A stretch of 64,000 nt of DNA from contig CAWHYB010000007.1 in assembly GCA_963833555.1 (NCBI GenBank), positions 388,739-452,738 of the forward strand, written 5' to 3'. This document shows, piece by piece, positions 26,609 through 46,368 of this stretch (position 1 is its first letter; every line of letters begins with the position of its first letter). The notes below the pieces were generated by a model. That model did no database searches, was not told the origin of the DNA, and saw nothing but the letters and a program-made list of their open reading frames with translations. Both the position numbers and the translations under genes were made by a program. This stretch comes from an uncultured Actinomycetes bacterium. Lineage in GTDB: Bacteria > Actinomycetota > Thermoleophilia > UBA2241.

Positions 26609-27150
26609 CAGGCTCGTCCTTCAGCCGCAACTGGAACCTGACGACGGCACCTTCAGGTACGTTCGGGTCGCCGGTGGCCGGGCAGGCCGTCGACCTCGAG
26701 CTCGCCGGGCAGCATCTCGAAGCCGAGCCGCTGGTGGAAGGCGATCGAGTCGCTTGTTGACGACCGCGGTGACGGCGCGCGCACGTCGACCGGCCGTGTC
26801 GGCGCGCGCCACCTCGAAGAAGCGTTCGTAGAGCCGGCGCGCCAGGCCGGCGCGGCGCCAGGCAGGCTCGACACCGACGAAGTGGACGTAGGCTTCGTCG
26901 TCGTGGTCGGGCACAGAAAGCCGACGAGGAACCCGACGAGCCGACCGTCTCCGTCGCTCGGCGACGAACGACGTGGAGCTGAAGTGCTCGAAGAAGATGC
27001 GCGGCAGCAGGTCGCGCAGGTCGCGCCCGCCCCACCACTCGGGCATGACCGCTACGACGCGCTCCCAGTCGTCAGATGCGCGCGGCGACGAGAGCCGCGC
27101 AGGGCACGAGGCGATCGCTTCGAGTGCGGCGGCGTCTCCCTCGTCGGTCG
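26601..27150 (-). CDS. GNAT family N-acetyltransferase embedded in the mqn operon; frame-interrupted
   Basis: WWGGRDLRDLLPRIFFEHFSSTSFVAE, AYVHFVGVEPAWRRAGLARRLYERFF and SIAFHQRLGFE. The stop overlaps the mqnC start. The 5' end is approximate. Confidence 0.55.
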
Positions 27151-27990
27151 GCTCGTGCCGAGACTCGGCACCTCGCCGAGCTCGCCGATGGCGGCGGCGC
27201 GGCGGTAGAACTCGAGCCAGGCCGCGGCGGTACTCGGCGGTGAAGCCGTACTTGAGCTGATCGAAGTAGTGGTCGAGGTAGGCGTCGCTGAAGTCGTAGA
27301 GCTGCGCCGCCGCGGCCGCCGTCTCGAGCGGATGGGCGGCGCAGCGGTCGCGCGAGGCGACCAGCGCCGCCTCGATGGCGCGGGCCTCGTCGGCGCGCTC
27401 GTCGAGGAACTCGCGGCGCACGGCGCAGACGGCGTAGACCATCGGCAGGCCGGTGACGAGCGCGCCACTCCTCGCCGAGGTCGTAGCTGTGCGGGTAGAC
27501 GCCGGCGCGCAGGATGTACAGCGCCTCGTCGCCGATCAGCAGCAGCCCGTCGTAGTCGGCCAGCGCCTCGGCCAGCGGGCCCTGGCGCGGCGCCGAACGA
27601 CGGCTCGATGCCCCACTCGCGGCAGAGCACCTTGAGCAGGCAGACCGAGGTGGCGCTCTTCTCGGTGAGCGGCGACGCTCTCGATCTGCGTCGCGCGGGA
27701 TCTGCGTGAAGAGCTGGATCGAGTCGACGGCGCCGAACGAGCTGATCGAGATGCCGGGCAGCAGCGCGAGCGCGTCGGCGTGGCGGGCGAACTCGATCGA
27801 CGACGGCAGGGCGACGTCGATCTCGCCGGCGACCAGCAGGCGCGTTGAGCTGCGCCGGCGTGCCGTCGACGACCTCGGCCTGGTACCCCAGCCGCGCCAG
27901 CTCCTCCTCGAAGTGGCAGTAGAGCGGGAAGCAGTTGACGAACTCGATGCGGCCGACGCGCGCGGCGCCGGCGCCGGCGTCAGCGCTCAC
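27150..27990 (-). CDS. mqnA: chorismate dehydratase (MqnA-like); frame-interrupted
   Basis: RVGRIEFVNCFPLY, SATSVCLLKVLCREWGIEP and LDHYFDQLKYGFTAEYRRGL. GTG 27990 overlaps the mqnE stop (GTGA). The 3' end is approximate. Confidence 0.65.
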
Positions 27991-29121
27991 GCCGGCTCCT
28001 CGTCGTAGCGGCGCACGACGTTGTAGAGCGTGTCGCGCTCGACCGGCACGCGGCCGGCGCCGCGGATCACGCGCACCAGCTCGTCGCGCGTCAGCTCCTG
28101 ACCGGTGTCGACGCCGGCGGCGTGGCTGATCTTCTCCTCGACCACGGTGCCGTCGAGGTCGTTGACCCCGAAGGCGAGCGAGACCTGGGCGAGCTTGAGG
28201 CCGACGTTGATCCAGAAGGCCTTGACGTGGCGGAAGTTGTCGAGCACGAGGCGGCCGACGGCGAGCATCTTGAGGTCGTCGTAGCCGGTCGGGCCGGGCA
28301 GCTCGGTCAGCCCGGTGTTGGCCGGCTGGAACGAGAGCGGGATGAAGGCGTTGAAGCCGCCGGTCTCGTCCTGCAGCTCGCGCAGCCGCAGCAGGTGGTC
28401 GGCGAGCTCGGCCGGCGTCTCGACGTGGCCGTAGAGCATGGTGGCGTTGGACTTGAGGCCCGACGCCGTGGGCGGCGCGCATGACGTCGAGCCACTCCTC
28501 GCCGCTGATCTTGCGCTTGCAGATGAGGTCGCGCACGCGGCCGCTGAAGACCTCGGCGCCGCCGCCCGGCAGCGAGCCGAGCCCGGCCTCCTTGAGCTCG
28601 ACGAGCATCTCGCGCACCGCCTTGCCCGCTGATGCGGGCGAGGTGGGCGATCTCGCTCGCCGTGAACGCCTGGATGTGGACGTCGGGCGCGAGCTCCTTG
28701 AGGCCGCGCATCATCTCGAGGTAGTAGTCGAAGGGCAGGTCGGGATGCTCGCCGCCGACGATGTGGATCTCGGTGATGCCGCCGGTGAGCGTCTCGCGCG
28801 CCTTGTCGAGCACCTCGTCGACCGAGAGCGTGTAGGCGTCGGCGTCGCCGTCGTCGTGGCTGAAGGCGCAGAAGAGGCAGCGGTTGCGGCAGACGTTGGT
28901 GTGGTTGATGTGGCGGTTGCAGATGAAGTAGACGTCGTCGCCGACGGCGCGGTGGCGCACGAAGTCGGCCATCGCGCCGAGCGCGAGCAGGTCGGTCGAG
29001 CTCGACAGCAGGTCGCGGCGTCGGCGCGCCGACAGGCGCTCGCCGCCGCGCCACCTTGTCCCAGACGTGCTGCGAGCCCGGCGCGCCGCCAGGCGGTCGA
29101 TCTGCTGTCGTCCGAGCTCAT
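27987..29121 (-). CDS. mqnE: radical SAM aminofutalosine synthase (MqnE-like); frame-interrupted
   Basis: NRHINHTNVCRNRCLFCAF cluster; IHIVGGEHPDLPFDYY, LKSNATMLYGHVE, FIPLSFQ, LAFGVNDLDGTVVEEKI. Confidence 0.65.
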
Positions 29122-29178
29122 GTCACTCCCAGACTAGCGGCTGCCGGCGCATGCTCGACGGTTCGCCCGGCTGGCGGG

Positions 29179-30171
29179 TCAGCTGTAGCGGTCGACCACC
29201 GAGCCGGCCAGCTCGTCGAGCAGCTCGCGCTCGACGCCGCCCGGACAGTCGGCCAGCCGGCTGCGGGCCTCGTCCATGAACGCCAGCGCGGTCTCGCGGG
29301 CGCGTTCGATCGCACCGCTCGGCCAGCACATCGTCGACGACCACGCCGCGAGACAGGTCTCGTCGTCGCGGCAGCGCGGCCAGGCGCGGCCCGATGTCGG
29401 GCCGCGCCTCGAGCGCCAGCACGATCGGCAGCGTCACCGTGCCGTCGCGCAGGTCGGCGCCGCGCCGCTTGCCGGTACGCGCCTCGTCGCCGGTCAGGTC
29501 GAGGATGTCGTCGAAGATCTGAAACGCCAGGCCGAGCGAGTCGCCGAAGGCCCCGAGCGCCGTCGACCGTCTCGTCGGCTCAGCCCGGTGAGCAGCGCGC
29601 CGAGCCGGCAGGCGGCCGCGAAGAGGTCGGCCGTCTTGAGCCGGCAGCGCCGCAGGTAGTCGTCGACGGTGACGCGTCGTGCGAAAGGCGTCGCCGGCCT
29701 GCAGCCGCTCGCCCTCGGAGAGGCCCCAGGCGACCTCGGCTGAGCAGCGCCACGGCAGGCGCGTCGCCCGTGCCGGCGAGCTCGGCGAAGGCCGCGCGAG
29801 CAGGTAGTTGCCGGTCGACGACGGCCATCTCGTCGCCGTAAGCGCGGGCGACGGTCGGCCGGCCGCGGCGCAGCTCGGCGCCGTCGAGCACGTCGTCGTG
29901 GACGAGCGTCGCCATGTGCAGCAGCTCGACCGCGGCGGCGGCGCGCAACACCGGCCCGTCGAGCGGGCCGGTGTCGCGCGCCGCCAGCAGCACGAGCAGC
30001 GGCCGCAGGCGCTTGCCGCCGGCGGTGAGCGTCGAGGCGGCCGGCCTCGCAGAGCCGCCCGGGCATCGACTCGACGACGCTGCCGAGGCGCTCCTCGACT
30101 GCGGCGAGGCCGCCGGCGACGCGGTTGCGCTGTGCGGCCGAGCGCCAGGAGAGGATGTCTGCCGGCTTCAC
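29179..30171 (-). CDS. polyprenyl diphosphate synthase (trans-IPPS, HepT/IspB-like); frame-interrupted
   Basis: First DDxxD ([18 protein letters not shown]) and second motif ([20 protein letters not shown]). GTG 30171 overlaps the menG stop. Confidence 0.75.
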
Positions 30172-30989
30172 GACCGCGCCGTCGCAGGCCGTCCACGGGC
30201 TGCCACGGGCGCATCGCCGACGTGCAGCGCCATGGCGCCGAAGCCGAAGCGCCGATAGCGCACGTTCCGCAGGCCGGCGCGCGCGCATCACGGCCGCCAG
30301 GCCCGTCGGCGTCGGGGAACGAGCGGACCGAGGCCGGCAGATACGCGTAGGCGCTCGGCGTCGCCGGCGACCAGGGCGCCCAGGGCGGCACGACCACGCT
30401 CGAACCAGATGGCGTGGAAGCGCCGGCCGAAGGCGCCGGCGCGGCGTCGTCGCCTCGAGACAGACGACGCGCGCCCCCGGGCGCAGCCACGCGCGACCAT
30501 CTCGGCGAAGGCGCGGTCGAGGTCGGCGACGTTGCGCACGCCCCAGCCGACCGTCACGGCGCCGAAGGTCGCGTCGGCGAAGGGCAGCGCGAGCAGGTCG
30601 CCGGCGAACGAAGCGTACGGCAGCGCCCCGCGACGGCGCGGGCGGCCTTGGCGCGCGCCCGCGCGAGCATCGCCGCGCTGAAGTCGAGCCCGGTGACGGC
30701 GCGCGGCGGGATAGCGGCGCGCGCAGCGCCAGCGTGAGATCGCCGGTGCCGCAGCAGGCGTCGAGCAGCGCTGTGCGCCGGCGGCGGCGCGGCGGCGACG
30801 CGCCGCCGCCGCGCGCCAGCGGCGGTCGAGCCCGGCCGTCATCAGCCGGTTCATGAGGTCGTAGCGCGGCACGATGCGGTCGAACATCGCGGCGATGCGC
30901 TCGGGGTCGCGATCGGGCTGGGTCGCGCGACCATCCGTCGCCGTCGCCGTCGCCCTCCGCAGACCCGGGGGGCGATGGACATCGGTCAC
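30168..30989 (-). CDS. menG: demethylmenaquinone methyltransferase (UbiE/MenG); frame-interrupted
   Basis: MFDRIVPRYDLMNRLMTAGLDRRWR, LLDACCGTGDL, FGAVTVGWGVRNV and the GAMALHVG ending. GTG 30989 overlaps the ubiX stop. Confidence 0.75.
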
Positions 30990-31593
30990 TGCGGACCCTC
31001 CCACGGCGGCGAGAGGCGCTGCTCGAAGCCGAGCGCCGCACAGCACCTTGCCGACCACGAAGTCGACGACGTCGTCGAGCGTCCGCGGGCGCGTGTAGAA
31101 GCCCGGCATGGGCGGCACGATCAGCGCGCCCGCGCGGCGCGCCTCGAGCAGGCGCTTCAGGTGGATCTCGAGAGCGGCGTCTCGCGCGGCACCAGCACGA
31201 GCGGGCGGCCCTCCTTGAGCGCGACGTCGCCGGCGCGGTGGATGAGCGTGCGCGTCGTGCCCAGCGCGATGTGGGCGACGCGTCGACAGCGAGCACGGGC
31301 AGACGACCGCGGCGTCGGGGAAGTTGCTGCCGCTGGCGACCGGCGCCTCGAGGTCGTCGGGGGCGAAGACGCGCGCCTCGGCGCGGGCGGCGGCGAGGAA
31401 CGCCGCCGTCACCTCGGCGCGCTCCGCCAGCGCCGAGCTCGAGCTCGTGGCGCAGCACGGCGAGGCCCATGTCGGAGACGCAGAGCGAGAGCTCGCAGCC
31501 GCGCCGCCGCGAGCGCTCGACGAGCCGCAGCGCGTACGGGGCGCCGCTGGCGCCGGTGACGCCGACGAACAAGCTGGCGGGTGGTGCGATCAC
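30986..31593 (-). CDS. ubiX: flavin prenyltransferase UbiX; frame-interrupted
   Basis: N-terminus [17 protein letters not shown]; [24 protein letters not shown]; C-terminus [13 protein letters not shown] recovered after a 1-nt shift. Confidence 0.75.
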
Positions 31594-31654
31594 GAGACTC
31601 CTTCGATGGCGTCGGCACCCGGCGCCGCCGCGAGCGGCCGCCGGAAGACTCCCG

Positions 31655-32931
31655 CTAGTCTACCGCTCGCGCGACGGCCCCATGTGGGACCGACTGCGTT
31701 GACGAGCGCCGGAGCCGCGCCACGACCGCAGGCCCGGCGCAGCGGCCAAGCTGCCGCTCGTCAGTGTGGCGGACTGCCCGGCTGTGTGGCAGTCGCCGCC
31801 GTAGCAGCTCGCCGCGCCGCCGTCGTTGTTGCCGTGGCACTTCACGCAGACCGCGCCCTCGCGCGCGGCGTACACGAAGTGGCTGGCGATGAACGCGGCC
31901 GGGTGCGGCAGCACGACGCCGTGGCACTGCACGCAGCTGTCCGCGCCGTGGCACTTGCTGCAGAGCGCGGGATCGCTGCGTCGCGGTGGTCGGGTGCGAG
32001 GCAAGCCAGCCGGCCGGGTGCGGCATCGGGAGGCCGTGGCAGTCGATGCAGAACTTTGGGTCCTTGTCGGTGTGACACGAGGCGCAGATCTGCGCGCCTC
32101 GCTGCACGACCAGCGGGCCGTGGGACTGCGTCCAGCCCGGCGGGGTGCGGCATCGTGAGGCCGTTGTGGCACTTGGCGCAGAAGCTGCTGCGTGTGGCAC
32201 TGACGGCAGTTCGCCGGCTGGTCCATGTGCACGGTCGATGGTGATCTGCGCGGTGCCCGGCGGGCACGCCGTTGACGTGGCAGATCGAGCAGCGCTGCGG
32301 CTGGATGACGCCGTTGTGGCACTGCGCGCAGATCGACATGATCGACTGCGTGCGGCCGCGAGCCGACCGGGATCGCGGCGCCGTGGGCGACCTCGGCGTG
32401 GCAGGTCACGCACTGGAAGCCGGCCTCGCGCAGGCCCTTGTGGTTGACGCGGATGTTGCCGACGATCGATGTCGCTTCTCGATCTGGCTCTTGGGGTGAC
32501 ACTGCACGCAGTTCTCGACGCCGACGTAGGTGGTGATGCGGCCTTCTGGTAGTCGCCCCGAGATGTACTCGACGATGTGGGTCGGCCGACTGCAGGTTGC
32601 GGATGAAGTAGTTGAAGACGCCCGGCTTGGTGTGGCAGTCCTGACAGCCGACTCCCGGCCGATGGTGTTCAGACGTCTTGAACGAGGCGACCTCCTTCTT
32701 GATCACGTGACACCAGCCGCACGTGCGCGTTGTTGTTGACGACCGCGAAGCCGATCGGTGACCAGGACGAGGAGCGACGCACGACGGCCGGCGATCATGC
32801 CGAGCAGCCAGGCCCGCGGTCGATGCGGATGGCCGCATCGGCCCGCGGCGTGCGGGCCGCATCCGCCGCGCGCCTCGTCGGGCGGCGCGGCCGGCACGTG
32901 TGGCTGGCTGGTCGTCGGGTCGTCGGCTCAT
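31655..32931 (-). CDS. membrane-anchored NapC/NirT-like multihaem cytochrome c, 13 CXXCH + 1 CX4CH; frame-interrupted
   Basis: N-terminal hydrophobic anchor, then CGWCH, CQDCH, CVQCH, CVTCH, CAQCH, CSICH, CRQCH, CAKCH, CASCH, CIDCH, CSKCH, CVQCH, CVKCH and CYGGDCH. I confirmed 14 CH codon pairs on the plus strand. ATG 32931 lies 3 nt after the upstream stop. Confidence 0.75.
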
Positions 32932-32934: not shown

Positions 32935-33982
32935 CTAGAGCGCGCGGTGAGGATCGAGGGTGACGGCGTCGCGGCGTCGGCGTCCACTGCGGCACGCCTG
33001 CCGGTCGAGGAAGTCGTGCGCCTGCGGGCTGCCCGACTGGTGGGCCGGTGGCACGCCTGGCAGTTGGCCTGGTCGTGGCAGTTGAGGCAGCTCGTCGACG
33101 AGGCGGCGGCCGCTTACGGCGCGTGCTCCAGCCAGTCGGCCGGGTGCGGCAGCGGCACCCGGTGACAGCCGTCGCAGTATGGCGGCTCGTCGTGGCACTG
33201 CGTGCACGACTTGAGCGCCGAGCTTCAGCGCGCTGGCTGCCGTGTGCGCGTGAGCCAGTCGTCGGCGTGCGGCATGACGACGCCGCGATGACAGTCGACG
33301 CAGTCCGGCGGCGATCCGGGGACACCAGCCGGTGACCGCACCGCCCGGTCGCGGGTGGCAGGCGCTGCAGGTCGACAGGATGCCGTTCGGTGCCGTGGGT
33401 CTTGAGCCAGTCGGCCGTGTGACGTGCTGGGCCTGGCGCCCGCCGCGCGGCGCTGACGTGACAGAGGTCGCAGCGGCTGACGCGCGACCGTGCCGTCGGC
33501 CGCGCGGTAGTGGTTGTTGTGACACACCAGGCACTTGTCCATGGTCGGGTAGCGTCCGCGAGCCCGGCCGGGCACGGCGTCGCCGTGGGCGACCGTCGAG
33601 TGGCAGGTCGATGCACTGGTAGCCGGCCTCGATCAGGTGCTTGTGGTTCACGTTGATGCCGTTCTTGGAGATCGTCGGGAACAGCTTGCGTCGGTGTGGC
33701 AGCGCCGGCACGACGCGTTGACGCACCGTGCCGAGGATCGGGGTCTCGTAGTCGCCGGTGATCTGCTTGACGGGCTCCTGCAGCGCCTCGAGCTTGGCGG
33801 TCAGGAAGAAGAACGGACCCGGCTGCGATGGCACTGCTCGCAGTTGACGCCGCTGTGTGCACGACTGTGCTGGTACGCCGACGACGCTCGGCCTTCATGT
33901 TGTGGCAAAGCCCGCAGAAGGCGGTCGTCGAGGTGGCGACCAGCGCGACGCCCGTGACCACGACGAACGCCGTGACGACCAC
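32935..33982 (-). CDS. membrane-anchored NapC/NirT-like multihaem cytochrome c, 12 CXXCH; frame-interrupted
   Basis: TM (AIVVVTAFVVVTGVALVA), then CGLCH, CEQCH, CRRCH, CIDCH, CLVCH, CDLCH, CSACH, CVDCH, CTQCH, CDGCH, CLNCH, CQACH. The true start is probably a little upstream (to about 34010) after a frame change. Confidence 0.7.
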
Positions 33983-34041
33983 GATCGCTGACGATGAGCA
34001 GGCGTCGTGTCAGATGAAGGTTCAGCTTCGCTCCCGCTCCA

Positions 34042-35229
34042 CTAGTTGATCAGTCCACCGGCAGTGGGGAAGGCGTTGTGCACGGCGCTCCTGTGGCAGA
34101 GCAGGCAGGGCAAGCCGACGGCATGGGCCGTGGCCGAGCCGTGGCAGCGCACGCAGCTCGAGCTTGACGGAACGATCTTGCGTCCGTGGAACGCGCTGCC
34201 GTGGCAGGTACCACACGTGAGCCCGCTACCGCGGCCGCTGGCATGCACCTGGAGCGCGTGGCAACGCCGGCAAGCGACCGCCGCATGGGTGACCCGCCGG
34301 GAGTGGACGATGGCGTTGCCCGCGGCCGCGTTGGTGCCGCGGTGGCAACTCGCGCATTTCGTGGCAGGGATGCGCCAGGTCGCGTGCGACATCGTGTGGC
34401 ACTTGGTGCAGGCCGGGAAGCCGGGACTACGCGTCACGCCGTGGTGGAACTGCTTGGCCTTGGTGTGACAGGTCGTGCAGGCAACGCGCCCGGCGTGCTT
34501 CTGCAGCCCCGTGTGGCAGGTCGTGCAGGCCCCGACCGCCGGACTCGTGGTGTGGACCGTCTCGCGCTGGAAGATGCCGGTCGCGCTGTGACAGTCGGTG
34601 CACGTATTCGTGCCGTAGGTCTTCGCCGCGTGGCACTTGTTGCAGGTCGCCGGCTGCACGGGGATGTCCATGCCGTTGTGGCAGGACGTGCACGCTGGCT
34701 TGACCGAGTCATGATTGGCCTTCTGCGAAGCCAGCGTGCCGTTGTGACAGTCCTGGCAAGCCGGTGCCGTGAGCGTCATGCCCGCGTGGTGGGGGCTGCC
34801 GTCGGGAGAGCTGAACCCCGTGCTCACACCATGGCACGTGGTGCACGGTGCGAAGTCGGCGCCGAGATGAGGTGTAGCACCGTGGCTGAACTCGATCGAG
34901 TAAGCCCGCTGGCTCTCGTTCCAGAGGTGACAGGTGCTCGAACAGCCTGCGCTCGTGCGCCACGCGGACGTGTCTTGGCCGGGCTGATGGCAGCTCCAGC
35001 AGGTGTCACCCGGCACCGACTTGAAGTCGCTGCCGTGACAGGCCGTGCACGACGCGTCGCTGGGGCCGGTAGCGTGGCAGTCACTGCAGGCGGTGGCGCC
35101 GTCGTGCTCCCAGGTGGTGAAGGCGTGCGCGGGCGCGGCGGTGAGCGCGCTCACCGCCGCGCCCGCGCACAGCAGCGCAAGCATGGCGACAAGCAGCGGC
35201 ACGCGACCGGCGAGGATCCTGCTGGTCAT
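34042..35229 (-). CDS. secreted multihaem cytochrome c, 16 CXXCH + 1 CX3CH in 395 aa
   Basis: Uninterrupted ORF segment with SD GAGGGGG 7 nt before ATG 35229. Sec signal peptide ending AAPAHA. Motifs were counted directly in the translation. Confidence 0.85.
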   Translation of the reverse strand: MTSRILAGRVPLLVAMLALLCAGAAVSALTAAPAHAFTTWEHDGATACSDCHATGPSDASCTACHGSDFKSVPGDTCWSCHQPGQDTSAWRTSAGCSSTCHLWNESQRAYSIEFSHGATPHLGADFAPCTTCHGVSTGFSSPDGSPHHAGMTLTAPACQDCHNGTLASQKANHDSVKPACTSCHNGMDIPVQPATCNKCHAAKTYGTNTCTDCHSATGIFQRETVHTTSPAVGACTTCHTGLQKHAGRVACTTCHTKAKQFHHGVTRSPGFPACTKCHTMSHATWRIPATKCASCHRGTNAAAGNAIVHSRRVTHAAVACRRCHALQVHASGRGSGLTCGTCHGSAFHGRKIVPSSSSCVRCHGSATAHAVGLPCLLCHRSAVHNAFPTAGGLIN

Positions 35230-35291
35230 CGGGGAACCCCCTCGTAGACGGCAGACAAGCGCCACTCTACCAAGTCCTTTACGCCGGAGCA

Positions 35292-36188
35292 TCACAGCGA
35301 GATCGCCACCGACCAGACGATGAAGGCCGCAAGCGCCAGCGCCGCCAGGATCGCGACGAAGGTGATGACCCACGACACGACGTTGCCCACGATCGCGCCG
35401 CGCCCGCTGGGCGCCAGGACGATGGCCTCGTCGAGGGTCCCCTCGCGGATCCGGTTGGCGTATTCCAGTGGCCGCTCGAGACGGTAGTGATCGACCGGGA
35501 TCGAGCCGGTGAAGATGACCTTGTCGATGGGGAACGAGCCGGGCCGCCCGTGAGCGCTGAACAGGTGCACGAAGATGAAGATCACGCCCATCGCCAGCAG
35601 CGCCTCGTTGGAGTGGATCACGAGCGCGATGTTCAGGGCGATGCCCGGAAGGAACTTCGTCGTGGTCACAGGGAACCACATCATGAAGCCGGTCGCGCCG
35701 ATGATCACCGTGCCCGCCATCATCGACCAGAAGTCGAACTTCTCCCAGTACGTGAAGCGGTTGAACTGGGGGAACGGGCCCCTGCCGAAGAACCACCGGA
35801 ACATGCCGATGATGTCCAGCGCGTCCTTCTTGCTGGGCACGATCGAATCCGGGCCGAAGATCCGGCCGCGGACCTTGACCACGTGCACGCCCATGTAGCC
35901 GAGCTCAAGCAAGAAGTAGAGGATCGTGACGAGGGCCGCCAGACGATGCAGCACGCCGGCCGCCGTGACGCCGCCGATGGCGCCCATCACCCAGTGCGCC
36001 CAAGCGGCGTCCTTGTACTTGAGCGGCATGCCGGTGAACACGAGCACGGTGAAACTCGAGAGCGCCAAGAAATGCATCCAGCGATGGAACGCGTTGAAGC
36101 GCCGGTAGTGCAATCTCTCGTGCTGCTGTTTGTCAGTGCGACTTGTCGTAGAGACCTTGTCTACGACCGCGCCAGAAGTAGAGGACAC
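35292..36188 (-). CDS. FdnI/HydC-like (Ni/Fe-hydrogenase b-type cytochrome family) membrane cytochrome b
   Basis: RFNAFHRWMHFLALSSFTVLVFTG opening typical of PF01292-type cytochromes b. Further histidines lie in predicted helices (LHRLAAL, VIHSNEA, FVHLFSAH), and there are 5-6 TM helices. GTG 36188 has a GGAGGAG SD 6 nt upstream; the ORF is open to TTG 36215. Confidence 0.75.
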   Translation of the reverse strand: MSSTSGAVVDKVSTTSRTDKQQHERLHYRRFNAFHRWMHFLALSSFTVLVFTGMPLKYKDAAWAHWVMGAIGGVTAAGVLHRLAALVTILYFLLELGYMGVHVVKVRGRIFGPDSIVPSKKDALDIIGMFRWFFGRGPFPQFNRFTYWEKFDFWSMMAGTVIIGATGFMMWFPVTTTKFLPGIALNIALVIHSNEALLAMGVIFIFVHLFSAHGRPGSFPIDKVIFTGSIPVDHYRLERPLEYANRIREGTLDEAIVLAPSGRGAIVGNVVSWVITFVAILAALALAAFIVWSVAISL

Positions 36189-37008
36189 TGTGCACTCCTC
36201 CGAAGGTGAAGACAACGGCGATGAGCAGGACGTAGAACATGTACACGAGGAACACCGGGATCGACGATCGCGGTGACGTCGCGTTCACGTGGACGAGGTA
36301 GCTCGCGAATGCGGCGTTCGCGCCGGGATGGCATTTCGCGCAGGTCGCGACGATGTGCTGCTTTGAGATCGGTGCTGCGTGGGTCCGACGGCGGCAGGAT
36401 CTTGATGCGCACCGTGGCAGTCGTAGCAGGTGGCCGCGCCCACCCGACCCAGCTCGAAAGCCTTGCCGTGGTACGTGTCAAGGAAGGTCGCCGCGTGGCC
36501 GCCGTGACAGCCTTCGCAACGCGCCGTCACCTGCTCGCGGAATCGGCGGGTCGTCACGTCGACGACGGCATGCGCATCGTGGCAATCGCCACAGGTCGGC
36601 ACCTTGCCGAACTCGCCCGGCTTCAGCACAAGTCTGCCGTGGAACGAGCCGCGGTACATCGTGCCCTGCTGAGCGTGACAGTCGCCGCACGCGGTGAGCG
36701 AGGCCTGTTCGAACCATCCGCTGGTCTCTTGGGAAGTGTGCTGTCGCGACTGGAAGCCCACATGACAGCTCGTGCAGTCGAGCAGCGAGTGCAAAGAATG
36801 ATCCCAAGCGCTCGTGTCGAGGGCGATGCTCTTCGGTCACGCCGTTCACGTCGACTTGACCTTTCGCGCCAGGCCCATGACACGCGAGACAGCGGTCATT
36901 GTCACGGTTGGCCTGCGCGCCGGCGCTCGTGGGCAGGGCTGCGGTTGCGAGCGCGACCGTGATGACAAGCGCAAGCGCCAGCCGTGCAGGCGCGCGGCTC
37001 GACAACAT
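36133..37008 (-). CDS. multihaem cytochrome c, 7 CXXCH, signal peptide and C-terminal TM helix; frame-interrupted
   Basis: MLSSRAPARLALALVITVALATAALPTSAGA, then CLACH, CTSCH, CGDCH, CGDCH, CEGCH, CYDCH, CAKCH. The C-terminal helix is IPVFLVYMFYVLLIAVVFTFGGV. Confidence 0.7.
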
Positions 37009-37034: not shown

Positions 37035-38061
37035 TCACGGTGTCGTCACCCCCAGGCGGGCATGGCAGCCGCTGCACATCGTCTGCGGGTGACAGACGAG
37101 GCACGACGCGGTGCCCTTGATGGCGACGGCGCCGTGGGTGGTGCTGCCAGTCGGCGGGATGATCGACCTGGTGGCACTGGTGGCAGAAGGTCTGCTCGCT
37201 ATGACAGCCCTGGCACGAGACGCCGTCGGCCGTCGCGGCCGGTCCGTGGCTATAGCGCCAGTCGCCGGCGAAGTGACTGGCCGGTGGCCGCGCGTGGCAG
37301 GCGTCACAGAAAGCGGCCTTGTCGTGGTGGCAGCGCAGGCAGTCGCTCTCATGGGTGAGCGCCTGGATGCCGTGTGTCTTCAGGAAGTCAGCGGGATGGA
37401 CGTTGCTCGGCGGCGGTGTGGCGTGGCAGGTGGTGCACTGGTTCGGCGCGGCCTGGCCGTTGTGGCACATGGAGCAGACGGTCATCGAGACTGTCGCGTT
37501 CGACTGACCGGGCGTGGCGTGAGAGACCTGGTTGTGGCAGTCGGCGCACTGCAGGTTGTGCATCGTGACATGCGACTGGTGGGGGATCTTGATGCCGTTG
37601 ATGACCGGCGGGAAGTTGCTCAGCTGGTGGCACTGCTCGCAGGCGGCGTCGGTCGGCTTGTGGACGCTCGCTGCCATGTCGGTGCCGGCGCTCAGGTAGG
37701 AGGCCCAGATGTTCTTGCCCTCCTGCAACCGCCAGACGATGCCGTTGATGAGGCCCGGCTCGACGTGACACTTCACACAGGACACGTCGGCGTGCACCGA
37801 GTGTTGCCAGGTGCTGCCGGCGGTCTTCATCTCGTGACACGATGTGCAGTAGCCGGACGTCGAAGTCAGCCGGACGGGGATGTAGAAGACGATCATCACC
37901 ACCGCGAGGACGCCTACCGCAGCAAGTGCGGTCAGCCACCAAGGGATGCTGCGACGAACCGGCGGGGTGCGCGTAGGCGGCGCCGGCGGTGTAGCCGGCG
38001 CCGCAGGCGTGTCGTGGCCGGACGCGTGATCCGGCTCGCGGCTGTCGCCTTCGGCTGCCAT
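37035..38061 (-). CDS. membrane-anchored NapC/NirT-like multihaem cytochrome c, 12 CXXCH; one frame change near 37135
   Basis: TM (WWLTALAAVGVLAVVMIVFYI), then CTSCH, CVKCH, CEQCH, CADCH, CSMCH, CTTCH, CLRCH, CDACH, CQGCH, CHQCH, CLVCH, CSGCH. The ORF is open to GTG 38103. Confidence 0.8.
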
Positions 38062-38116: not shown

Positions 38117-38134
38117 TTGTGACGAGTGTATCAA
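38117..38134. promoter_or_regulatory. Rex-operator-like site TTGTGAC-GAGT-GTATCAA overlapping the -10 box
   Basis: Matches 10 of 14 positions of the TTGTGAA-N4-TTCACAA consensus (one half 6/7, the other 4/7). A rex gene is encoded 3.6 kb upstream on the same strand. Confidence 0.25.
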
Positions 38135-38152
38135 TCGTCAAAAGAGTGTCAA
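38125..38152 (-). promoter_or_regulatory. sigma70-like promoter candidate for the cytochrome module (TTGACA-N16-TACACT on minus strand)
   Basis: TGTCAA at 38147-38152 and AGTGTA at 38125-38130 on the plus strand. It lies in the 157-nt gap between the prenyltransferase stop and the first cytochrome gene. Confidence 0.4.
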
Positions 38153-38259: not shown

Positions 38260-39145
38260 TCAGTCAGCGAGCACGGTGACGATCACGACGACGCCGTACA
38301 GCAGGCCGACGACCCCGTTGACCGTCATGAATCCCATGCCGACCCGGCTCAAGGCCGCGTCGCGCGATGTCGACGTGCGACCACGCCAGGATCGCCGCTA
38401 CCACGCAGACAGCCGGCGTAGTAGACAAGCGGCAGTCCAAGCAGCGCGCCGGCCGTCGAGCAGGAGCGACGACTGAGCCAAGGTGAGAGAGGGCGGCGAC
38501 GAGCAGAGCTCGTCGCCGCCCGAACCTGACGGGCACCGAGTGGATGCCCTCGTCGCGGTCGAATCGAGGTCGAAGATCGCGTAGATGACGTCGAAGCCAC
38601 CCACCCACAAGCCGACGGCCACGAACAGCAGGACCGGCGACAGGGCGACGCGGCCGGTCACGGCGACCCAGGCCGCCGCCGGCGCCAGGCCGTCGGTCAG
38701 GCCGAGCGCGTAGTGGCAGAACCAGGTGAAGCGCTTCGTGTACGGGTAGGCGATGAAGGCCGCCACGACGATCGGCCACAGGTACCGGCACGGCGGCGAC
38801 AGGAAGAAGGTCGACAGCACGAGGACGCCGAGCGAGGCGGCAGTGAAGGCGACGACCTCGCCGCGCGCAGCGACGCCGGTCGGCAGCTCGCGCCCGGCGG
38901 TGCGCGGGTTGCGAGCGTCGATGCCGGCGTCGATCAGCCGGTTCAGCGCCATGGCGGCGCTGCGCGCCGCGACCATCGCCACGGTGATCCAGACGAGCGT
39001 CGCCCAGCGACGGGATGCGCTGCTCGGCCAGCACCGCGCCGGCGTACGCGAAGGGCAGCGCGTAGACGCTGTGTTCGACCTTGATGAGGCGGGCGAAGAG
39101 CGCGGGGCGTGCCGACGCCGGTGCGGGGCGTGAGGCGGATGTCAC
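38260..39145 (-). CDS. UbiA family polyprenyltransferase (menaquinone-specific, futalosine route); frame-interrupted
   Basis: LIKVEHSVYALPFAYAGAVL, NRLIDAGIDARNPRTAGRELP (Asp-rich motif), polytopic. Fragments 38264..39145 and 38398..38982. Confidence 0.75.
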
Positions 39146-39173
39146 GGTCGGGTGACGGGCGAGGCGGCGCGCG

Positions 39174-39514
39174 CTAGCGCGCGCCGCCGTTCACGGGCCG
39201 AGGCTCGGTGCCGAACTTGGCGACCAGCCAGCACGACGAAGCCGACGATGACCGCGACGATGGCGACCACGAAGAGGATCGTGTAGAGGAACATGCTGGC
39301 GGGCTGCGCCGCTGCCCAGATAGGAGCTCACGCCCCAGCAGACGACGGCGATCGCCCAGTTGACGATCGACAGGATCCAGAAGCGGCGTGCGGTGCGGAC
39401 GTGGGGAGCGTCGCCACCGGTCGCGGCGGCTGCGGGCTCGTCGGGCCGCGCGGAGGCGGTCGGCACCTCGCCTGCGTCGCGATCGGTGGGCATCTTGTCG
39501 TCCGGCTGCGTCAT
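39174..39514 (-). CDS. small two-TM membrane protein of unknown function; one frame change
   Basis: RRFWILSIVNWAIAVVCWGVSSYL and, after the shift, MFLYTILFVVAIVAVIVGFVVLLVA. No family was recognised. Confidence 0.4.
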
Positions 39515-39610
39515 GTCAGTCAGTGTAAAGAAGGCCGGGCACGCTGTCGAGAAGCCCTGCTGTTGGCCCGAAACGCTCCGACCGGTGGCGGCTGGGAATC
39601 GAGATCGCGG

Positions 39611-41102
39611 TCACGTGCGCCGAAACCCGAGACCCAGTTCGGCCCAGCGACGCGTCGACGCGCGCCATCGACGGCCGGGTCCATGGCGAGCTCGTCGGGC
39701 CACTCGCGGCCGTGACCTTCGTCGGGCCAGGTCCTGGTCGCGTCGATGCCCATCTTGGCGCCGTAGCCGGCCGTCGGGCTCGAGTGGTCGAGCACGTCGA
39801 GCGGCCCGTCGACGATCATCGTGTCGCGGCGCGGGTCGACGTTGTTGAACACGCGCCAGGCGACCTCGCGCGGGTCGTGTACGTCGACGTGCTCGTCGAC
39901 GACGACGACGAACTTGGTGAACATCATCTGTCCCATCCCCCAGACGCGCTCATCACCTTGCGGGCGTGACCGGGGTACGCCTTGCGGATCGAGACCACGG
40001 CGCAGTCGTGGAAGACGCCCTCGATCGGCAGCTCCAGGTCGACGATCTCGGGCAGTGTCAGGCGCAGGAGGGGCAGGAACAGGCGCTCGGTGGCCTTGCC
40101 CAGATAGCAATCCTCCATCGGCGGGCGGCCGACTATGGTGGCCGGGTAGACCGCGTCGTGGCGCATGCTCATCGCGGTCAGATGGAAGACCGGGTAGTCG
40201 TCGGCGAGCGAGTAGTAGCCGGTGTGATCACCGAACGGGCCTTCGCGGCGCAGCTCGCCCTGCTCGACGTAGCCCTCGAGGACGATCTCGGCGTCGGCCG
40301 GCACTTCGAGATCGACCGTCGCGCACGGCGCCAGCTCGACCGGCTCGCCGCGCAGGAAGCCGGCGAACATGAGCTCGTCGATGCCGGGCGGCAGCGGCGC
40401 CGTCGCGGCGTAGGTCACGGCAGGATCAGTGCCGATGGCGACGGCGACCTCGAGCCGGCCGTCGGCGGCCCGGAAGTTCGCGGCCCCATCGTGATGGACG
40501 TGCCAGTGCATCCCAGTGCTCTGCGCATCGTGGACCTGCAGCCGATACATGCCGGCGTTGCGGCGGCCCTCGCGGTCCTTGGTGATCACGACCGGCAAGG
40601 TGATGAACGGGCCGCCGTCGCCCGGCCAGGTCGTGAGTACGGGCAGCCTGCCCAGGTCGGGCGGCTCGACGACGACCTCGCGGAAGGCCGCCTTCTTCGT
40701 CGGCTTCGGCGCGAACGAGGCGAGCTCGCGCAGCTGCCCCAAGGCCTTGACCTTGCTGACCAGCCCCCTGGGCACCTGCAGCTCGACGAGCTCGCCGATG
40801 CGGGCGGCGATCTCGTCGAGTGGCGCGCCGAGGGCCAGTTCGAGCCGCCGGTACGACCCGAACTGGTTCATCAGTACGGGCAGGGGCGGTCCGGACAGCC
40901 GATGGGCGTTGCCGGGCGACGCCACGACCGGCGAGCTGTGACCCGACGCGCTCTCGGGACGCTCGAAGAGCAGCGCGGGACCGTCGGCCTTGCTCGCGCG
41001 GTCGGCGATCTCGGCCATCTCGAGATACGGATCGACGGGCGCCGTCACGACGGCCAGCTCGCCTTCGCGGCGCAGCAGCCCGACGAACTCGGCCAGCCTC
41101 AC
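39611..41102 (-). CDS. UbiD family decarboxylase (menaquinone biosynthesis type); frame-interrupted near the 3' end
   Basis: LLFERPE, GGPFITLPVVITKD, RNAGMYRLQV, FGDHTGYYS, MMFTKFVVVVDEHVDVHD. GTG 41102 overlaps the upstream stop (GTGA). Confidence 0.75.
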
Positions 41103-41767
41103 GCCGGCTCCTTGCAAGCCATGGCGGTGAGTGCGGCGCCCGCGGCGCCGGCATCGTCTGAGCCCGGGTGCTGCGCGTCGGTCTCGACCTCGTGCTCCAT
41201 GCCGAGGGCGGCGCGCAGCGGCTGTGGCCGGCGCAGTGACAGCGACGCCGCTGCCCGCCGCACGACCTGGGGCAGGCGTTCGGCGCGGCCGCGGCCGAAC
41301 AGCGCGCCGACCTCGTCGAAGACACGCAGGGCCGCGAGGCCGCTGCCGCCGGATGCCGACGATGCCATGCCGGCCACGCACAGGGCCCAGAGGTCGTCGT
41401 CGCAGGCGAACGGGCAGTCCTCGGCGCGCAACCAGGAGCAAGTCGCCATCAGCCGGGTCAGCAGGGCGATCGAATCGAGGTCGCCCGCGTCGGCGACCAG
41501 CCGCAGGCCGCTGGCATCGAGGTGGTCGCCGGCGAGCAGCCGCGTCTGCAGCGTGGTGTTCGCGCCGAGCAGGCGGCTCACTCGATAGTGGGTGAGGTAG
41601 CCCTCGTAGACGAGCTCGATGGCCAGGACGTAGGGGTCGGGAGCGGCCTCGGGCGCGAGCGCCCGGAACAGCGGCGCGTAGACCAGCGCGAAGCGCGGCG
41701 GCGGCGCCGTCGCAAACGGCGCCGCCGCGGCCCACAGCGCCTCGCGAATTGCCTGATCGTCGGCCAT
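41099..41767 (-). CDS. hypothetical protein (222 aa) between rex and the UbiD-like gene
   Basis: Uninterrupted ORF, translationally coupled at both ends (TGATG and GTGA overlaps). No family was recognised. Confidence 0.45.
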   Translation of the reverse strand: MADDQAIREALWAAAAPFATAPPPRFALVYAPLFRALAPEAAPDPYVLAIELVYEGYLTHYRVSRLLGANTTLQTRLLAGDHLDASGLRLVADAGDLDSIALLTRLMATCSWLRAEDCPFACDDDLWALCVAGMASSASGGSGLAALRVFDEVGALFGRGRAERLPQVVRRAAASLSLRRPQPLRAALGMEHEVETDAQHPGSDDAGAAGAALTAMACKEPA

Positions 41768-42423
41768 CAGAGCTCGCGATCGAGGTAGAACGACAGGAAC
41801 ATGAGCTCGCTCGAGAAGTCGACCTGGCGCACCACGACGTCGCGCGGCGCCAGCACCTTGACCGGCGCGAAGTTCAAGATGGCGCGCACGCGGCGGTCGG
41901 GCTCGAGCGAGACCACCCTGTCGATGATCGACTGGGCGGCGTGGGCCGGTACGGTGATGATGGCGATGTCGACCCGCTCGTCACGGCAGAACGGCTCAAT
42001 CTCGGCGGCGTCGCGGATGGTGCGCCCGTCGCCGAAGCCGACGCCGACCTTCTTCGGCGACGCGTCGAACATGGCGACCAGCCTGAAGCCCTGCTCGGCG
42101 AAGCCGCGGTACCGGGCGAGGGCGGTGCCCAGCGAGCCCGCCCCGATGATGATCACGTTCCAGGTGCGCTCGAGCCCGAGGCAGCGCCTGATCTCGTCGA
42201 CCAGACGGTCGACCTCGTAGCCGACGCCCCGCGTGCCGAACTCGCCGAAGTACGAGAAGTCCTTGCGGATCTGCGCCGCGTTCAGGTCGATCATCTCGGC
42301 CAGCTGCTTCGAGGACACACGCTCGAGGCCCCGGCCTTGCAGCTCGCGCAACTTGCGCAGATAGAGCGCGAGGCGCGGCACAGTGACGGCCGGCACGGCG
42401 TTCTTGTCGACGGGACGTCCCAT
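41767..42423 (-). CDS. rex: redox-sensing transcriptional repressor Rex
   Basis: N-terminal wHTH (RLALYLRKLRELQ..VSSKQLAE...AQIRKDFSYFGEFGTRGVGY) and Rossmann loop IIGAGSLGTAL. Confidence 0.85.
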   Translation of the reverse strand: MGRPVDKNAVPAVTVPRLALYLRKLRELQGRGLERVSSKQLAEMIDLNAAQIRKDFSYFGEFGTRGVGYEVDRLVDEIRRCLGLERTWNVIIIGAGSLGTALARYRGFAEQGFRLVAMFDASPKKVGVGFGDGRTIRDAAEIEPFCRDERVDIAIITVPAHAAQSIIDRVVSLEPDRRVRAILNFAPVKVLAPRDVVVRQVDFSSELMFLSFYLDREL

Positions 42424-42444
42424 GGGCCCCTCCTCCTCGTCGTC

Positions 42445-43737
42445 CTACAGGCCTGCGAAAAACGCGCCGGCCGCTTCGGCCGCGCGGGCGACATCGGTTT
42501 CGGTCAGCGCCAGCGACACCATCGCCGACTCGAACTGCGACGGCGCCAGGTAGATGCCACTGTCGAGCATATGGCGCCAGTAGCGCGCATAGAGCGTTGT
42601 GTCGGCGTGGCGGGCCTCAGCGAAGCTTGTGACGGGCCCGTCACAGAAGAAGAGCGTCATCATGGCGCCGACGCGGTTGAGCGTGGTCGGCGCTCGCTCG
42701 CTGACCGCCGAGGCCGCGGCGACGAGGCCCTGGCAGACCTGCACGGCACGCGCCTCGAGCGACTCGTAGACGCCAGGTTCGGCAAGCGCCCGCAGGGTGG
42801 CGATGCCGGCCGCCATCGCGAGCGGGTTGCCGGACAGCGTGCCGGCCTGGTAGGTCGAGCCGAGCGGCGCCACCGTCTCCATGATGTCGGCGCGGCCACC
42901 GAAGGCGCCGACCGGCAGGCCGCCGCCGATGATCTTGCCGAGGGTGGTGAGGTCGGGCATCACGCCGAAGCGTTCCTGCGCGCCGCCCCACGCGACGCGG
43001 AACCCGGTGATGACCTCGTCGAAGATGAGCAGCGCGCCGGCGTCGGTACACAGCCGGCGGATCTCCTCGAGGAACCCCGGTTGCGGCGGAACGACGCCCA
43101 TGTTGCCGGCGACAGGCTCGACGATGACGCAGGCGATCTCGTCGCCGTGCGACGCGAACACCGCGCGCAGCGCCGCCGCGTCGTTGTACTCGACGAGGAT
43201 GGTGTCCGAGGTCGTGCCCTTCGTGACCCCAGGGCTGTCGGGCAGTGCCAGCGTGAGCACGCCGCTGCCCGCCGCCGCCAGGAACGGGTCGGCGTGACCG
43301 TGATAGCAGCCGATGAACTTGACCACCTTGTCGCGCCCGGTGAAGCCGCGCGCCACACGCAGGGCACTCATCGTCGCCTCGGTGCCCGAGTTGACCATGC
43401 GCACGAGCTCGACCGACGGGACGGCCTCGCAGATCAGGCGGGCGAGCTCGACCTCGAGTGCCGTCGGCGCGCCGAAGCTCGTGCCCAGGTCGACCTGGGC
43501 ATGAAGTGCGGCGACGACCTGCGGCTGTCCCCAGCCCAGGATCATCGGCCCCCACGACGAGACGAGGTCGACGAACTCGTTGCCGTCGACATCCCATATG
43601 TGAGCGCCGCGGGCGCGTGAGATGAACAGAGGATGCGGCATGCCGACACCCTTCATCGCCCTCACCGGCGAGTTCACTCCCCCGGGTATGTACTGCCGCG
43701 CCTCGTCGAACAGGCGCTTCGATGTCTCGATGTTCAA
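42445..43737 (-). CDS. hemL: glutamate-1-semialdehyde 2,1-aminomutase
   Basis: Uninterrupted 430-aa ORF with YIPGGVNSPVRA, GTEATMSALRVARG and LIFDEVITGFR. TTG start with a GGGAGGA SD. Confidence 0.9.
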   Translation of the reverse strand: MNIETSKRLFDEARQYIPGGVNSPVRAMKGVGMPHPLFISRARGAHIWDVDGNEFVDLVSSWGPMILGWGQPQVVAALHAQVDLGTSFGAPTALEVELARLICEAVPSVELVRMVNSGTEATMSALRVARGFTGRDKVVKFIGCYHGHADPFLAAAGSGVLTLALPDSPGVTKGTTSDTILVEYNDAAALRAVFASHGDEIACVIVEPVAGNMGVVPPQPGFLEEIRRLCTDAGALLIFDEVITGFRVAWGGAQERFGVMPDLTTLGKIIGGGLPVGAFGGRADIMETVAPLGSTYQAGTLSGNPLAMAAGIATLRALAEPGVYESLEARAVQVCQGLVAAASAVSERAPTTLNRVGAMMTLFFCDGPVTSFAEARHADTTLYARYWRHMLDSGIYLAPSQFESAMVSLALTETDVARAAEAAGAFFAGL

Positions 43738-43865
43738 AGATCCTCCCGTTGACAGTCTCTGGGCGCCGCGATCATTTGTGACTGACGGTACATGATACTG
43801 TGGCGCGCCATCCAGCGCCCGTGATGGCTGTGGTCGCTCCGGAGATCGGCGCCGCCGAGGCCTAG

Positions 43866-45263: not shown

Positions 45264-45382
45264 GGACGGGGTCGCAGACCGTAGGTGGAGTTTCATCGTC
45301 TCGATAGAAGTATGCAGAATGGGGCGGGGGGAGGCAACGGCTGGACGCCGTTGCCTGCCCCCGCCGCCGCGACCGTCGTGCT

Positions 45383-46368
<986 letters not shown>

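Follow-up and report, generated by a model that had tools for sequence, protein, structure and literature searches.

The window analysed here is a 64,000-nucleotide (nt) stretch of contig CAWHYB010000007.1 (positions 388,739 to 452,738) from an uncultured Actinomycetes bacterium of the Thermoleophilia (UBA2241), and its minus strand carries an intact gene for a c-type cytochrome with 17 haem-binding motifs, called the 17-site cytochrome below. Judged from its sequence and gene context, this protein is on balance probably the exported, unanchored electron carrier of a conserved module that would lead electrons from menaquinol to the outside of the cell in uncultured soil and sediment Thermoleophilia. 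This reading was preferred because all 17 sites were invariant, the protein matched c3/c7-type Pfam families, the gene order was fixed in 18 of 25 related loci, and the protein was the sole unanchored member of its module. The CbcBA-like pair encoded beside it, its wall-anchored and immunoglobulin (Ig)-tailed relatives, and earlier metagenome surveys that had proposed extracellular electron transfer also supported it. The integrity of the gene, the conservation of the motifs, the family membership, the synteny, and the architectures of the partner proteins were all observed directly.

The gene and its own elements lay at the following positions.

34042 to 35229, minus strand: gene of the 17-site cytochrome, from the ATG at 35229 to the stop codon at 34042-34044, encoding a precursor of 395 amino acids (aa) with 17 haem-binding motifs.
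35237 to 35243, minus strand: Shine-Dalgarno sequence GAGGGGG, 7 nt before the ATG.
35122 to 35229, minus strand: signal peptide (aa 1-36) with the predicted signal peptidase I cut after AAPAHA, from the sequence and the family conservation.
34927 to 34944, minus strand: CX3CH site CSSTCH (aa 96-101), the fourth haem site, with C96, C100, and H101 invariant in the two family alignments A1 and A2.

Translation of the plus strand over 34042-35229 was meaningless, and translation of the minus strand bore out an earlier note on this DNA, which had described an intact secreted reading frame of 395 aa with 16 CXXCH motifs and one CX3CH motif. The CXXCH motifs started at residues 48, 61, 77, 129, 158, 180, 196, 210, 235, 251, 274, 292, 320, 339, 359, and 375, and the precursor contained 35 Cys, 35 His, and 5 Met residues. 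The N-terminus was of the Sec type, with a basic segment (MTSRILAGR), a hydrophobic core of about 20 residues, and AAPAHA before the F at which the mature chain is predicted to begin, and AlphaFold2 predicted a helix at residues 10-30. No lipobox and no twin-arginine motif were found in the signal peptide by inspection of the sequence. The cut after AHA, as given in the earlier note, agreed with the predicted cleavage between AAPAHA and F. The mature protein would consist of about 359 residues, with a mass of about 37 kDa as the apoprotein and about 48 kDa with 17 haems, and a calculated isoelectric point of about 8.5. No transmembrane (TM) anchor was found in the mature protein, the Kyte-Doolittle maximum past residue 40 being 0.94 in 19-residue windows, and no sortase signal of the LPXTG type was found at the C-terminus (...HNAFPTAGGLIN, FPTAGGLIN), which had no hydrophobic stretch or basic tail; both absences had been noticed before and were confirmed by hydropathy and by inspection of the C-terminus. 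The C-terminal H-N-x-x-P-x-A-G was kept across the family (FPTAG in the 17-site cytochrome; aa 384-395, 34042-34080, minus strand) and, without a hydrophobic or basic tail, resembled a sortase motif only superficially. Together, the sequence features supported a complete, exported, and unanchored cytochrome that would bind 17 haems.

The sites were spaced at one per 23.2 residues of the precursor (395/17) and one per 21.1 residues of the mature chain (359/17), and in haem density the protein thus equalled or slightly exceeded the most crowded of the solved multihaem proteins. In the PDB, the chain lengths were 71 aa for the triheme PpcA, 91 for the tetrahaem STC, 318 for GSU1996 (3OV0), which holds 12 haems, 292 for the nine-haem cytochromes, and 560 for the 16-haem Hmc; a density similar to or higher than that of polymerised c7-type cytochromes, as had been claimed, held up against these lengths. 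The protein was counted among the class III cytochromes, which have dense CXXCH or CX3-4CH motifs, mostly bis-His ligation, and about 25-35 residues per haem, the ligation here being deduced from 16 His residues and M187. The best Pfam family was Cytochrome_C7 (PF14522; 58.4 bits, cut-off 24.8), followed by Cytochrom_c3_2 (PF14537; 42.0 bits, cut-off 25) and Cytochrom_CIII (PF02085; 28.4 bits, cut-off 22.9). The only NCBIfam match was to the decahaem DmsE family (TIGR03508), which scored 29.5 bits where the cut-off is 192.2, and membership of the MtrA/DmsE family was rejected on this score, on the presence of 17 haem sites rather than ten, and on the lack of a porin-like gene in the cluster. 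The triheme domain of GSU1996-type proteins (TIGR04257, nanowire_3heme) did not match the protein at E ≤ 0.001.

In the PDB, a single-sequence search (phmmer) returned nothing below E = 0.01. The family profile gave weak and piecemeal matches, the best of which was to the 16-haem Hmc (4.5e-5), followed by GSU1996 (8e-4) and MtrA (6R2Q chain A; 2e-3); the further matches were to c7/PpcA, nine-haem cytochromes, c3, and STC, so that c3/c7-type polyhaem proteins were matched exclusively. In the comparison with GSU1996-type proteins suggested in the earlier note, the Cytochrome_C7 family and the 3OV0 profile pointed to a likeness; with TIGR04257 silent and the 3OV0 match weak, the protein was not assigned to the tandem triheme polymers of the GSU1996 type. 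No entry for OmcS, OmcE, OmcZ, Thermincola OcwA, or an NrfA-type protein was present among the phmmer, profile, or Foldseek matches in the PDB, and the comparison with OmcS, OmcE, OmcZ, and the Thermincola surface cytochromes that had also been suggested showed no sequence or fold link there. The AlphaFold2 (AF2) model, built from 85 homologues without haems, was made up of coil and short helices, the picture that an all-haem protein should give, with a predicted local distance difference test score (pLDDT) of 79.4 and a predicted template modelling score (pTM) of 0.60.

Among the 5.8 billion proteins searched, a sequence identical to the 17-site cytochrome (P0001) was on record from an NCBI/ENA contig of 532,643 bp, together with about 90 homologous clusters, all of which were "hypothetical" proteins from metagenomes or metagenome-assembled genomes (MAGs); the few named hosts were labelled Actinomycetes, Thermoleophilia, or Actinobacteria bacterium. 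When all 1.84 billion cluster representatives were scanned as well, 77 of them matched at E ≤ 1e-30, and the family is therefore real but small. Giant matches of 1.5-3.9 thousand aa (e.g., P0117) were rejected as members, being generic CXXCH-repeat proteins like many of the weaker matches of the scan. The earlier note had named, as grounds for giving up its claim, a homology search that made the protein a fragment or domain of some larger, well-known family whose role is assigned; by its sequence, the protein is instead a full-length member of an uncharacterised family.

In an alignment of 25 homologues, with 42-70% identity to the 17-site cytochrome over more than 85% of its length, all 17 haem sites were invariant, and since this held down to 42% identity, the pattern was far beyond chance. 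The cleavage-site alanines, W40, H42, and the SPHH block were invariant or nearly so in the same alignment; A34 and A36 were invariant, and the block AAPAxA-[FY]xxWxHDG, with the cut at the first hyphen, was conserved in the family. The consensus C-[STA]-x-x-CH stood at the position of the CX3CH motif in almost all homologues, even near 30% identity, and this conservation makes it very probable that CSSTCH is a genuine haem site; c3-type cytochromes are known to contain CX3CH and CX4CH sites. Among the closer relatives aligned in A2, 16 non-motif His residues and M187 were invariant as well, and they would provide distal ligands for 17 haems within one chain, as 16 bis-His pairs and possibly one His/Met pair. 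The family signature drawn from A1 and A2 consisted of the AAPAxA signal end, [FY]xxWxHDG, three CXXCH motifs, the CX3CH motif, SPHH, and the C-terminal HN..P.AG, each of them invariant or almost so in these alignments and present in the 17-site cytochrome.

The members fell into several size classes: about 310 aa, about 390 aa with 17 sites, about 520 aa with 22-23 sites, and longer chains with 27 or more sites; the spacing was about 21-23 residues per haem in all of them. In the class of about 310 aa, 12 sites were canonical and the first motif was replaced by a CXCH. This CxCH (e.g., GCSCH or LCVCH), found where the 17-site cytochrome has CSDCH, was seen in P0016, P0031, P0033, P0036, P0047, P0053, and the L014 and L025 paralogues; its spacing of one residue between the Cys residues does not normally bind haem. 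In P0047, P0053, L014:9842-10984, and L025, a Thr/Pro-rich linker of 30-40 residues (TPTPTPTESPTATATP...) stood just before the CX3CH motif and separated off an N-terminal three-haem unit.

More distant relatives shared the N-terminal unit and differed at the C-terminus. One group ended in one or two β-rich Ig-like domains (about 115 or about 220 aa). In the other, a Thr/Pro-rich linker led to LPYTG, LPTTG, FAPTG, or FARTG, and then to a hydrophobic segment and an Arg/Lys tail; this ending is the classical sortase signal and was found in P0055, P0056, P0061, P0074, and the L013 paralogue. A single MAG, MFD09779.bin.2.149, encoded both an unanchored form of the cluster type (L024) and an LPTTG-ended paralogue with 12 haem sites (L013). 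This co-occurrence argues that the family would work in the wall zone of a monoderm envelope, and suggests that electrons may be relayed from the free form to the anchored forms. LPXTG- or Ig-tailed distant paralogues were P0055, P0056, P0061, P0070, P0074, P0078, P0083, P0109, L013:9821-10828, L021, and L023; tailed paralogues reached 23-29 or more haem sites, and P0106 was 959 aa long.

Five further cytochrome genes formed a module with the gene of the 17-site cytochrome. The architectures of their products were read from the orthologues in L001 (uncultured Actinomycetes MAG, isolate MFD04492), the closest locus fetched, where these genes were uninterrupted; the flanking genes were named by Pfam and NCBIfam matches of the L001 orthologues and then mapped to the window.

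37035 to 38061, minus strand: NapC1, NapC/NirT/NrfH-type (Pfam Cytochrom_NNT) with 12 CXXCH; one frame break near 37146.
36133 to 37008, minus strand: CbcA-like protein with a signal peptide, 7 CXXCH, and a His-bearing TM helix at the C-terminus (GGVHSVLYF); three frame breaks of one base each.
35292 to 36215, minus strand: FdnI/HydC-type cytochrome b (CbcB-like), frame intact; Pfam Ni_hydr_CYTB and a weak NCBIfam match to formate dehydrogenase gamma.
32935 to 34030 (approximate), minus strand: NapC2, TM-anchored NapC-type with 12 CXXCH, starting within about 15 nt of the stop codon of the 17-site cytochrome; about 16 frame breaks.
31760 to 32931 (3' end approximate), minus strand: NapC3, TM-anchored NapC-type with 13 CXXCH and a CX4CH; about 12 frame breaks.
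38125 to 38152, minus strand: promoter-like TTGACA-16 nt-TACACT in the 200-nt spacer between UbiA and NapC1, the same in L001 (TTGACAC-N16-GATACACTCGTCACAAG).

In L001, NapC1 had an N-terminal TM anchor and a NapC/NirT/NrfH head, and the cytochrome b, to which the protein of the window was 75% identical without any frame break, had 4-5 TM helices. The six genes together accounted for roughly 61-62 c-type haems, plus b haems, and the 17-site cytochrome was the only protein of the six without a TM segment. It was tightly linked to NapC2, because the latter started 4-10 nt past the stop codon in other loci. In the window (33985-34041, minus strand) and in L001 (11160-11200), the conserved N-terminus of NapC2 (KL.L.TRRLL) was preceded by no ATG, GTG, or TTG and by CTG only, and elsewhere by a normal ATG or GTG; its start in these two loci may be non-canonical or may reflect another assembly error. 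A fusion of the 17-site cytochrome with NapC2 by programmed frameshift or read-through was rejected, since the offset differed between the window and L001 and the other loci started with ATG or GTG 4-10 nt past the stop.

The promoter-like element is probably, from its sequence, the start of the cytochrome transcription unit. A different and well-conserved element (ATACCCnnnnTGGTACAAT; ATACCC(C/G)nnnTGGTACAAT) was present in the UbiA-NapC1 spacer of L002, L004-L006, L008, L010, L011, L015-L020, L022, and L024. It resembles an extended -10 that overlaps a small palindrome, and may be an operator.

The module was located inside a futalosine menaquinone cluster, beside haem-biosynthesis genes and Rex.

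38263 to 41150, minus strand: UbiA-type prenyltransferase (38266-39260) and UbiD-type decarboxylase (39623-41150), by Pfam on the L001 orthologues.
41767 to 43875, minus strand: Rex redox sensor (41767-42444) and HemL-like class-III aminotransferase (42445-43875), by Pfam on L001 and mapped.
44142 to 46307, further upstream of the HemL-like gene: HemB (ALAD; 45468-46307) and a SPASM radical-SAM gene near 44750.
25572 to 31602, minus strand: UbiX-type flavoprotein, polyprenyl synthase, MqnE, MqnA/D, and MqnC of the futalosine menaquinone pathway, by Pfam.

MqnE and MqnC also scored above their curated NCBIfam cut-offs. A conserved gene between rex and ubiD (41195-41768, minus strand; L001:3501-4343) was present in nearly all related loci and had no Pfam or NCBIfam match. 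The related loci, 25 in number, were found with a profile from 8 sequences; they came from different MAG species, mostly labelled Thermoleophilia, and their versions of the 17-site cytochrome had 31-55% identity to it. The order UbiD/UbiA, NapC1, CbcA-like, cytochrome b, 17-site cytochrome, NapC2, NapC3, UbiX, polyprenyl synthase, MqnE, MqnA/D, MqnC was kept in 18 of them, and two others on short contigs (L003 and L009) were partial and agreed with the module order in the part present. A second triplet of NapC1, CbcA-like, and cytochrome b lay between UbiD and UbiA in nine loci (L007, L010, L015-L019, L022, and L024), and a single copy was found in the window and in L001.

In the mechanism proposed from these data, the precursor would be exported by Sec and cut after AAPAHA, and 17 c-type haems, mostly bis-His, would be attached outside the membrane to give a compact, almost all-haem chain of the c3/c7 type. 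Menaquinol, made by the products of the surrounding genes, would be oxidised by the three NapC/NrfH-type cytochromes with 12-14 haems each and by the CbcBA-like pair of a seven-haem c-type and a dihaem b-type cytochrome. The extra haems of these membrane partners would hand the electrons to the 17-site cytochrome, which would lead them across the wall zone, either to wall-anchored paralogues or to extracellular acceptors such as Fe(III)/Mn(IV) minerals or humic substances, in a role comparable to that of the soluble PdcA of Thermincola or the PpcA/GSU1996-type carriers of Geobacter. The cleavage of the signal peptide, the haem occupancy, the direction of the electrons, and the acceptors are what we infer in this scheme. 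Where the earlier note had spoken of a soluble or wall-spanning electron shuttle, a soluble or wall-zone carrier fits the conserved gene context.

Several observations weigh against this scheme. The family is known from metagenomic sequences alone, without a cultured host, and the sequence does not reveal in which direction the electrons move. Genes for a terminal reductase or a surface cytochrome were absent from the cluster, and the acceptor is thus not given by the cluster. The confidence of the haem-free AF2 model was moderate, any length of the wire or packing of its haems is tentative, and Foldseek with this model (pLDDT 79) gave no match in the PDB with E below 1. Searches of the window for a Rex operator as TTGTGAA-N4-TTCACAA (≤3 mismatches) or TGTGA-N6-TCACA (≤1 mismatch) were negative, which left the module without a tie to redox regulation. 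The envelope type of the Thermoleophilia is uncertain too, and one paper describes the class as Gram-negative-staining.

An analysis of known systems revealed likenesses to several of them. GSU1996 and PpcA of Geobacter sulfurreducens are soluble, almost all-haem chains that carry electrons between inner-membrane quinol oxidases and the outside, as proposed for the 17-site cytochrome, and their densities are comparable (PpcA has 3 haems in 71 aa and GSU1996 has 12 in 318 aa, whereas the 17-site cytochrome has one per 21 aa). In contrast to them, the 17-site cytochrome has no regular triheme repeat, has 17 sites with a CX3CH among them, belongs to an actinobacterial host, and has a conserved N-terminal unit of its own (WxHDG, CX3CH, SPHH), and the identity was too low for a residue-level alignment. 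The Hmc of Desulfovibrio (1Z1N) is likewise a large c3-type polyhaem protein that works with a membrane complex, but only short pieces of it could be aligned, and its 560 residues for 16 haems correspond to 35 per haem. Hmc belongs to the hmc operon with Fe-S and membrane subunits, not to a cluster of NapC, CbcBA, and menaquinone genes. MtrA/DmsE proteins (TIGR03508) are also elongated haem wires, but the score was far under the cut-off and the porin partner was missing.

The likeness to Thermincola was one of logic. In the published model, electrons pass through ImdcA (an anchored decahaem cytochrome), PdcA (a soluble decahaem), CwcA (a wall hexahaem), and OcwA (a surface nonahaem) (PMC7911101). 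An anchored menaquinol-oxidising cytochrome would in both cases feed a soluble carrier and then the wall or surface, the 17-site cytochrome corresponding to PdcA and the paralogues with LPXTG or Ig tails to the components in the wall and at the surface; however, no sequence or fold relation was detected in the PDB searches, the haem numbers and the phylum differ, and the genes lie here inside a menaquinone cluster. In Geobacter, the CbcBA menaquinol oxidase of extracellular respiration consists of a seven-haem cytochrome, whose C-terminal TM helix gives a His to a b haem, and a four-TM partner. The CbcA-like neighbour has 7 haem sites and a C-terminal TM His and adjoins a multi-TM cytochrome b, a likeness drawn by description and not by reference sequences. 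Several parallel quinol oxidases in one organism, such as CbcBA, ImcH, and CbcL of Geobacter, are also a feature of these neighbours; ImcH differs in having 7 haems against the 12-14 of the NapC-type proteins.

The protein could instead act as a hub or capacitor in a periplasm-like space between membrane and wall, holding up to 17 electrons and feeding reductases of soluble substrates encoded elsewhere (for nitrite, sulfur compounds, or dissolved metals), as the c3/Hmc pools do in sulfate reducers. The best PDB profile match was indeed the 16-haem Hmc, with c3 and nine-haem cytochromes matched too, partners of the NapC/NrfH type classically feed periplasmic reductases, and the protein has no wall anchor. 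We consider this unlikely, because no conserved cluster contained a reductase gene, the set of three NapC-type proteins, with 8 or more extra haems each, and a CbcBA-like pair recalls the quinol-oxidase redundancy seen in metal reducers, and paralogues of the family were wall-anchored. A flow in the opposite direction, from extracellular donors such as Fe(II), reduced humics, a syntrophic partner, or a cathode into the menaquinone pool, is another reading; multihaem conduits are generally reversible, the sequence fixes no direction, and the mainly bis-His ligand inventory suits either one. It is distinctly improbable, as established thermodynamics makes the transfer from Fe(II) to menaquinone uphill at neutral pH, quinol oxidation is the known role of CbcBA and NapC-type proteins, and no Cyc2-type or other oxidation marker was found in the window. 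Polymerisation of the protein head to tail into a filament, giving an unbroken line of haems that crosses the wall and extends past it, as in OmcS, OmcE, or OmcZ or as proposed for Thermincola CwcA, would suit its very high haem density and its lack of an anchor, and the wall-embedded polymer model for Thermincola CwcA is a Gram-positive precedent (PMC7911101). Such a nanowire appears very improbable here: sequence and fold showed no similarity to OmcS, OmcE, or OmcZ in the PDB searches, the family lengthens its wire by haem repeats within the chain (13, 17, 22-23, 27 or more) and not obviously by polymerising, and, as weak evidence, the 16 conserved non-motif His residues and M187 supply distal ligands within the chain, so that no inter-subunit ligand is required. 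A bolder reading, possible but doubtful, is that the module of about 60 haems is a lineage-wide apparatus of extracellular respiration in soil and sediment Thermoleophilia, in which the 17-site cytochrome, either singly or in stacks that include its 13- to 27-haem relatives and the LPXTG paralogues, would form a haem wire that spans the Gram-positive wall. The haems of GSU1996 are spaced at about 1 nm per haem, and by analogy a chain of 17 could reach a length of up to about 15 nm.

Four of the five module neighbours were broken in the window (NapC1, the CbcA-like gene, NapC2, and NapC3, with the cytochrome b intact), a count that the earlier note had given correctly and that could point to a decaying, non-functional cluster in which the 17-site cytochrome was intact by chance. 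This explanation is largely refuted and has next to no probability left. Frame breaks were counted by frameshift-aware alignment of the L001 orthologues onto 23.7-43.8 kb of the window, and about 70 single-base breaks were found, with roughly 60 extra and 10 missing bases, as follows.

HemL-like 0, Rex 0, conserved unknown gene 1, UbiD 3, UbiA 7.
NapC1 1, CbcA-like 3, cytochrome b 0, 17-site cytochrome 0, NapC2 16, NapC3 12.
UbiX 4, polyprenyl synthase 8, MqnE 4, MqnA/D 6, amino-acid permease 5.

HemB was fragmented too, and the SPASM gene near 44750 was affected as well. DNA alignments showed the breaks to be 1-bp insertions or deletions, and they struck UbiD, UbiA, UbiX, the polyprenyl synthase, MqnE, MqnA/D, and the permease equally. 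The frame-corrected identity to the orthologues was 58-87%, in the same range as that of the intact genes, and was normal on either side of the breaks. After correction, all 44 CXXCH of the four broken cytochromes were retained, with 2 in-frame stops in about 4,000 codons, and orthologous modules elsewhere (e.g., L002-L006) gave single unbroken matches for every gene. Because the breaks were spread over unrelated genes, with normal identity, retained motifs, and almost no in-frame stops, they are errors of assembly or base calling and not signs of pseudogenisation. Their density was patchy, from 0 in 4.3 kb (HemL, Rex, cytochrome b, and the 17-site cytochrome) to 28 in 2.3 kb (NapC2 and NapC3). 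No 4-mer was significantly enriched near the 70 break sites after correction for 136 tests (best raw p = 0.004), and a link to methylation-type motifs (GATC, TCGA, and similar) was rejected, since motif density did not separate clean from broken genes. The related MAGs were for the most part MFD-labelled assemblies, which we take to be long-read MAGs of Microflora Danica; split matches of a like kind occurred in several of them, and these breaks are likewise technical and should not be read as pseudogenes. The significance that the earlier note had implied for the intact frame did not survive, as the breaks affected menaquinone genes, UbiX, and the permease alike and HemL, Rex, and the cytochrome b were intact as well; the intactness of the 17-site cytochrome has no biological meaning.

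Among Gram-positive bacteria, extracellular electron transfer by cytochromes is, to our knowledge, documented only for a few thermophilic Firmicutes, with passing metagenomic remarks on Actinomycetota. Earlier metagenome surveys had proposed it for multihaem clusters of this kind: a Solirubrobacterales MAG was reported to encode seven multihaem cytochromes that were predicted to lie in the wall, with up to 15 haems and with four of the genes clustered (PMC6344600), and CbcL-like and surface multihaem matches were reported from Thermoleophilia MAGs (bioRxiv 10.1101/2022.03.26.485925). Literature searches returned no description of the family of the 17-site cytochrome, its CX3CH signature, the six-gene order, or its placement in an mqn cluster, and nothing relevant on cytochrome modules embedded in menaquinone clusters or on UBA2241 cytochromes. 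The present analysis defined the conserved module, its gene order, the partner architectures, the family signature, and the variants with 13, 17, 22-23, and 27 or more haem sites. The 17-site cytochrome is the one soluble component of the module and as such is open to expression and study, and its spacing of about 21 residues per haem makes the family a good subject for the design of minimal haem wires. If the wall-spanning respiration were real, an abundant soil group so far regarded as "heterotroph-only" would take part directly in the redox cycling of minerals and humic substances, by an uncharacterised cytochrome-based route in the Actinomycetota.

Elsewhere in the window, and unrelated to the cytochrome module, an intact reading frame (8307-11552, minus strand) encoded a 1,081-aa protein with at least nine repeats of the FG-GAP/VCBS type.

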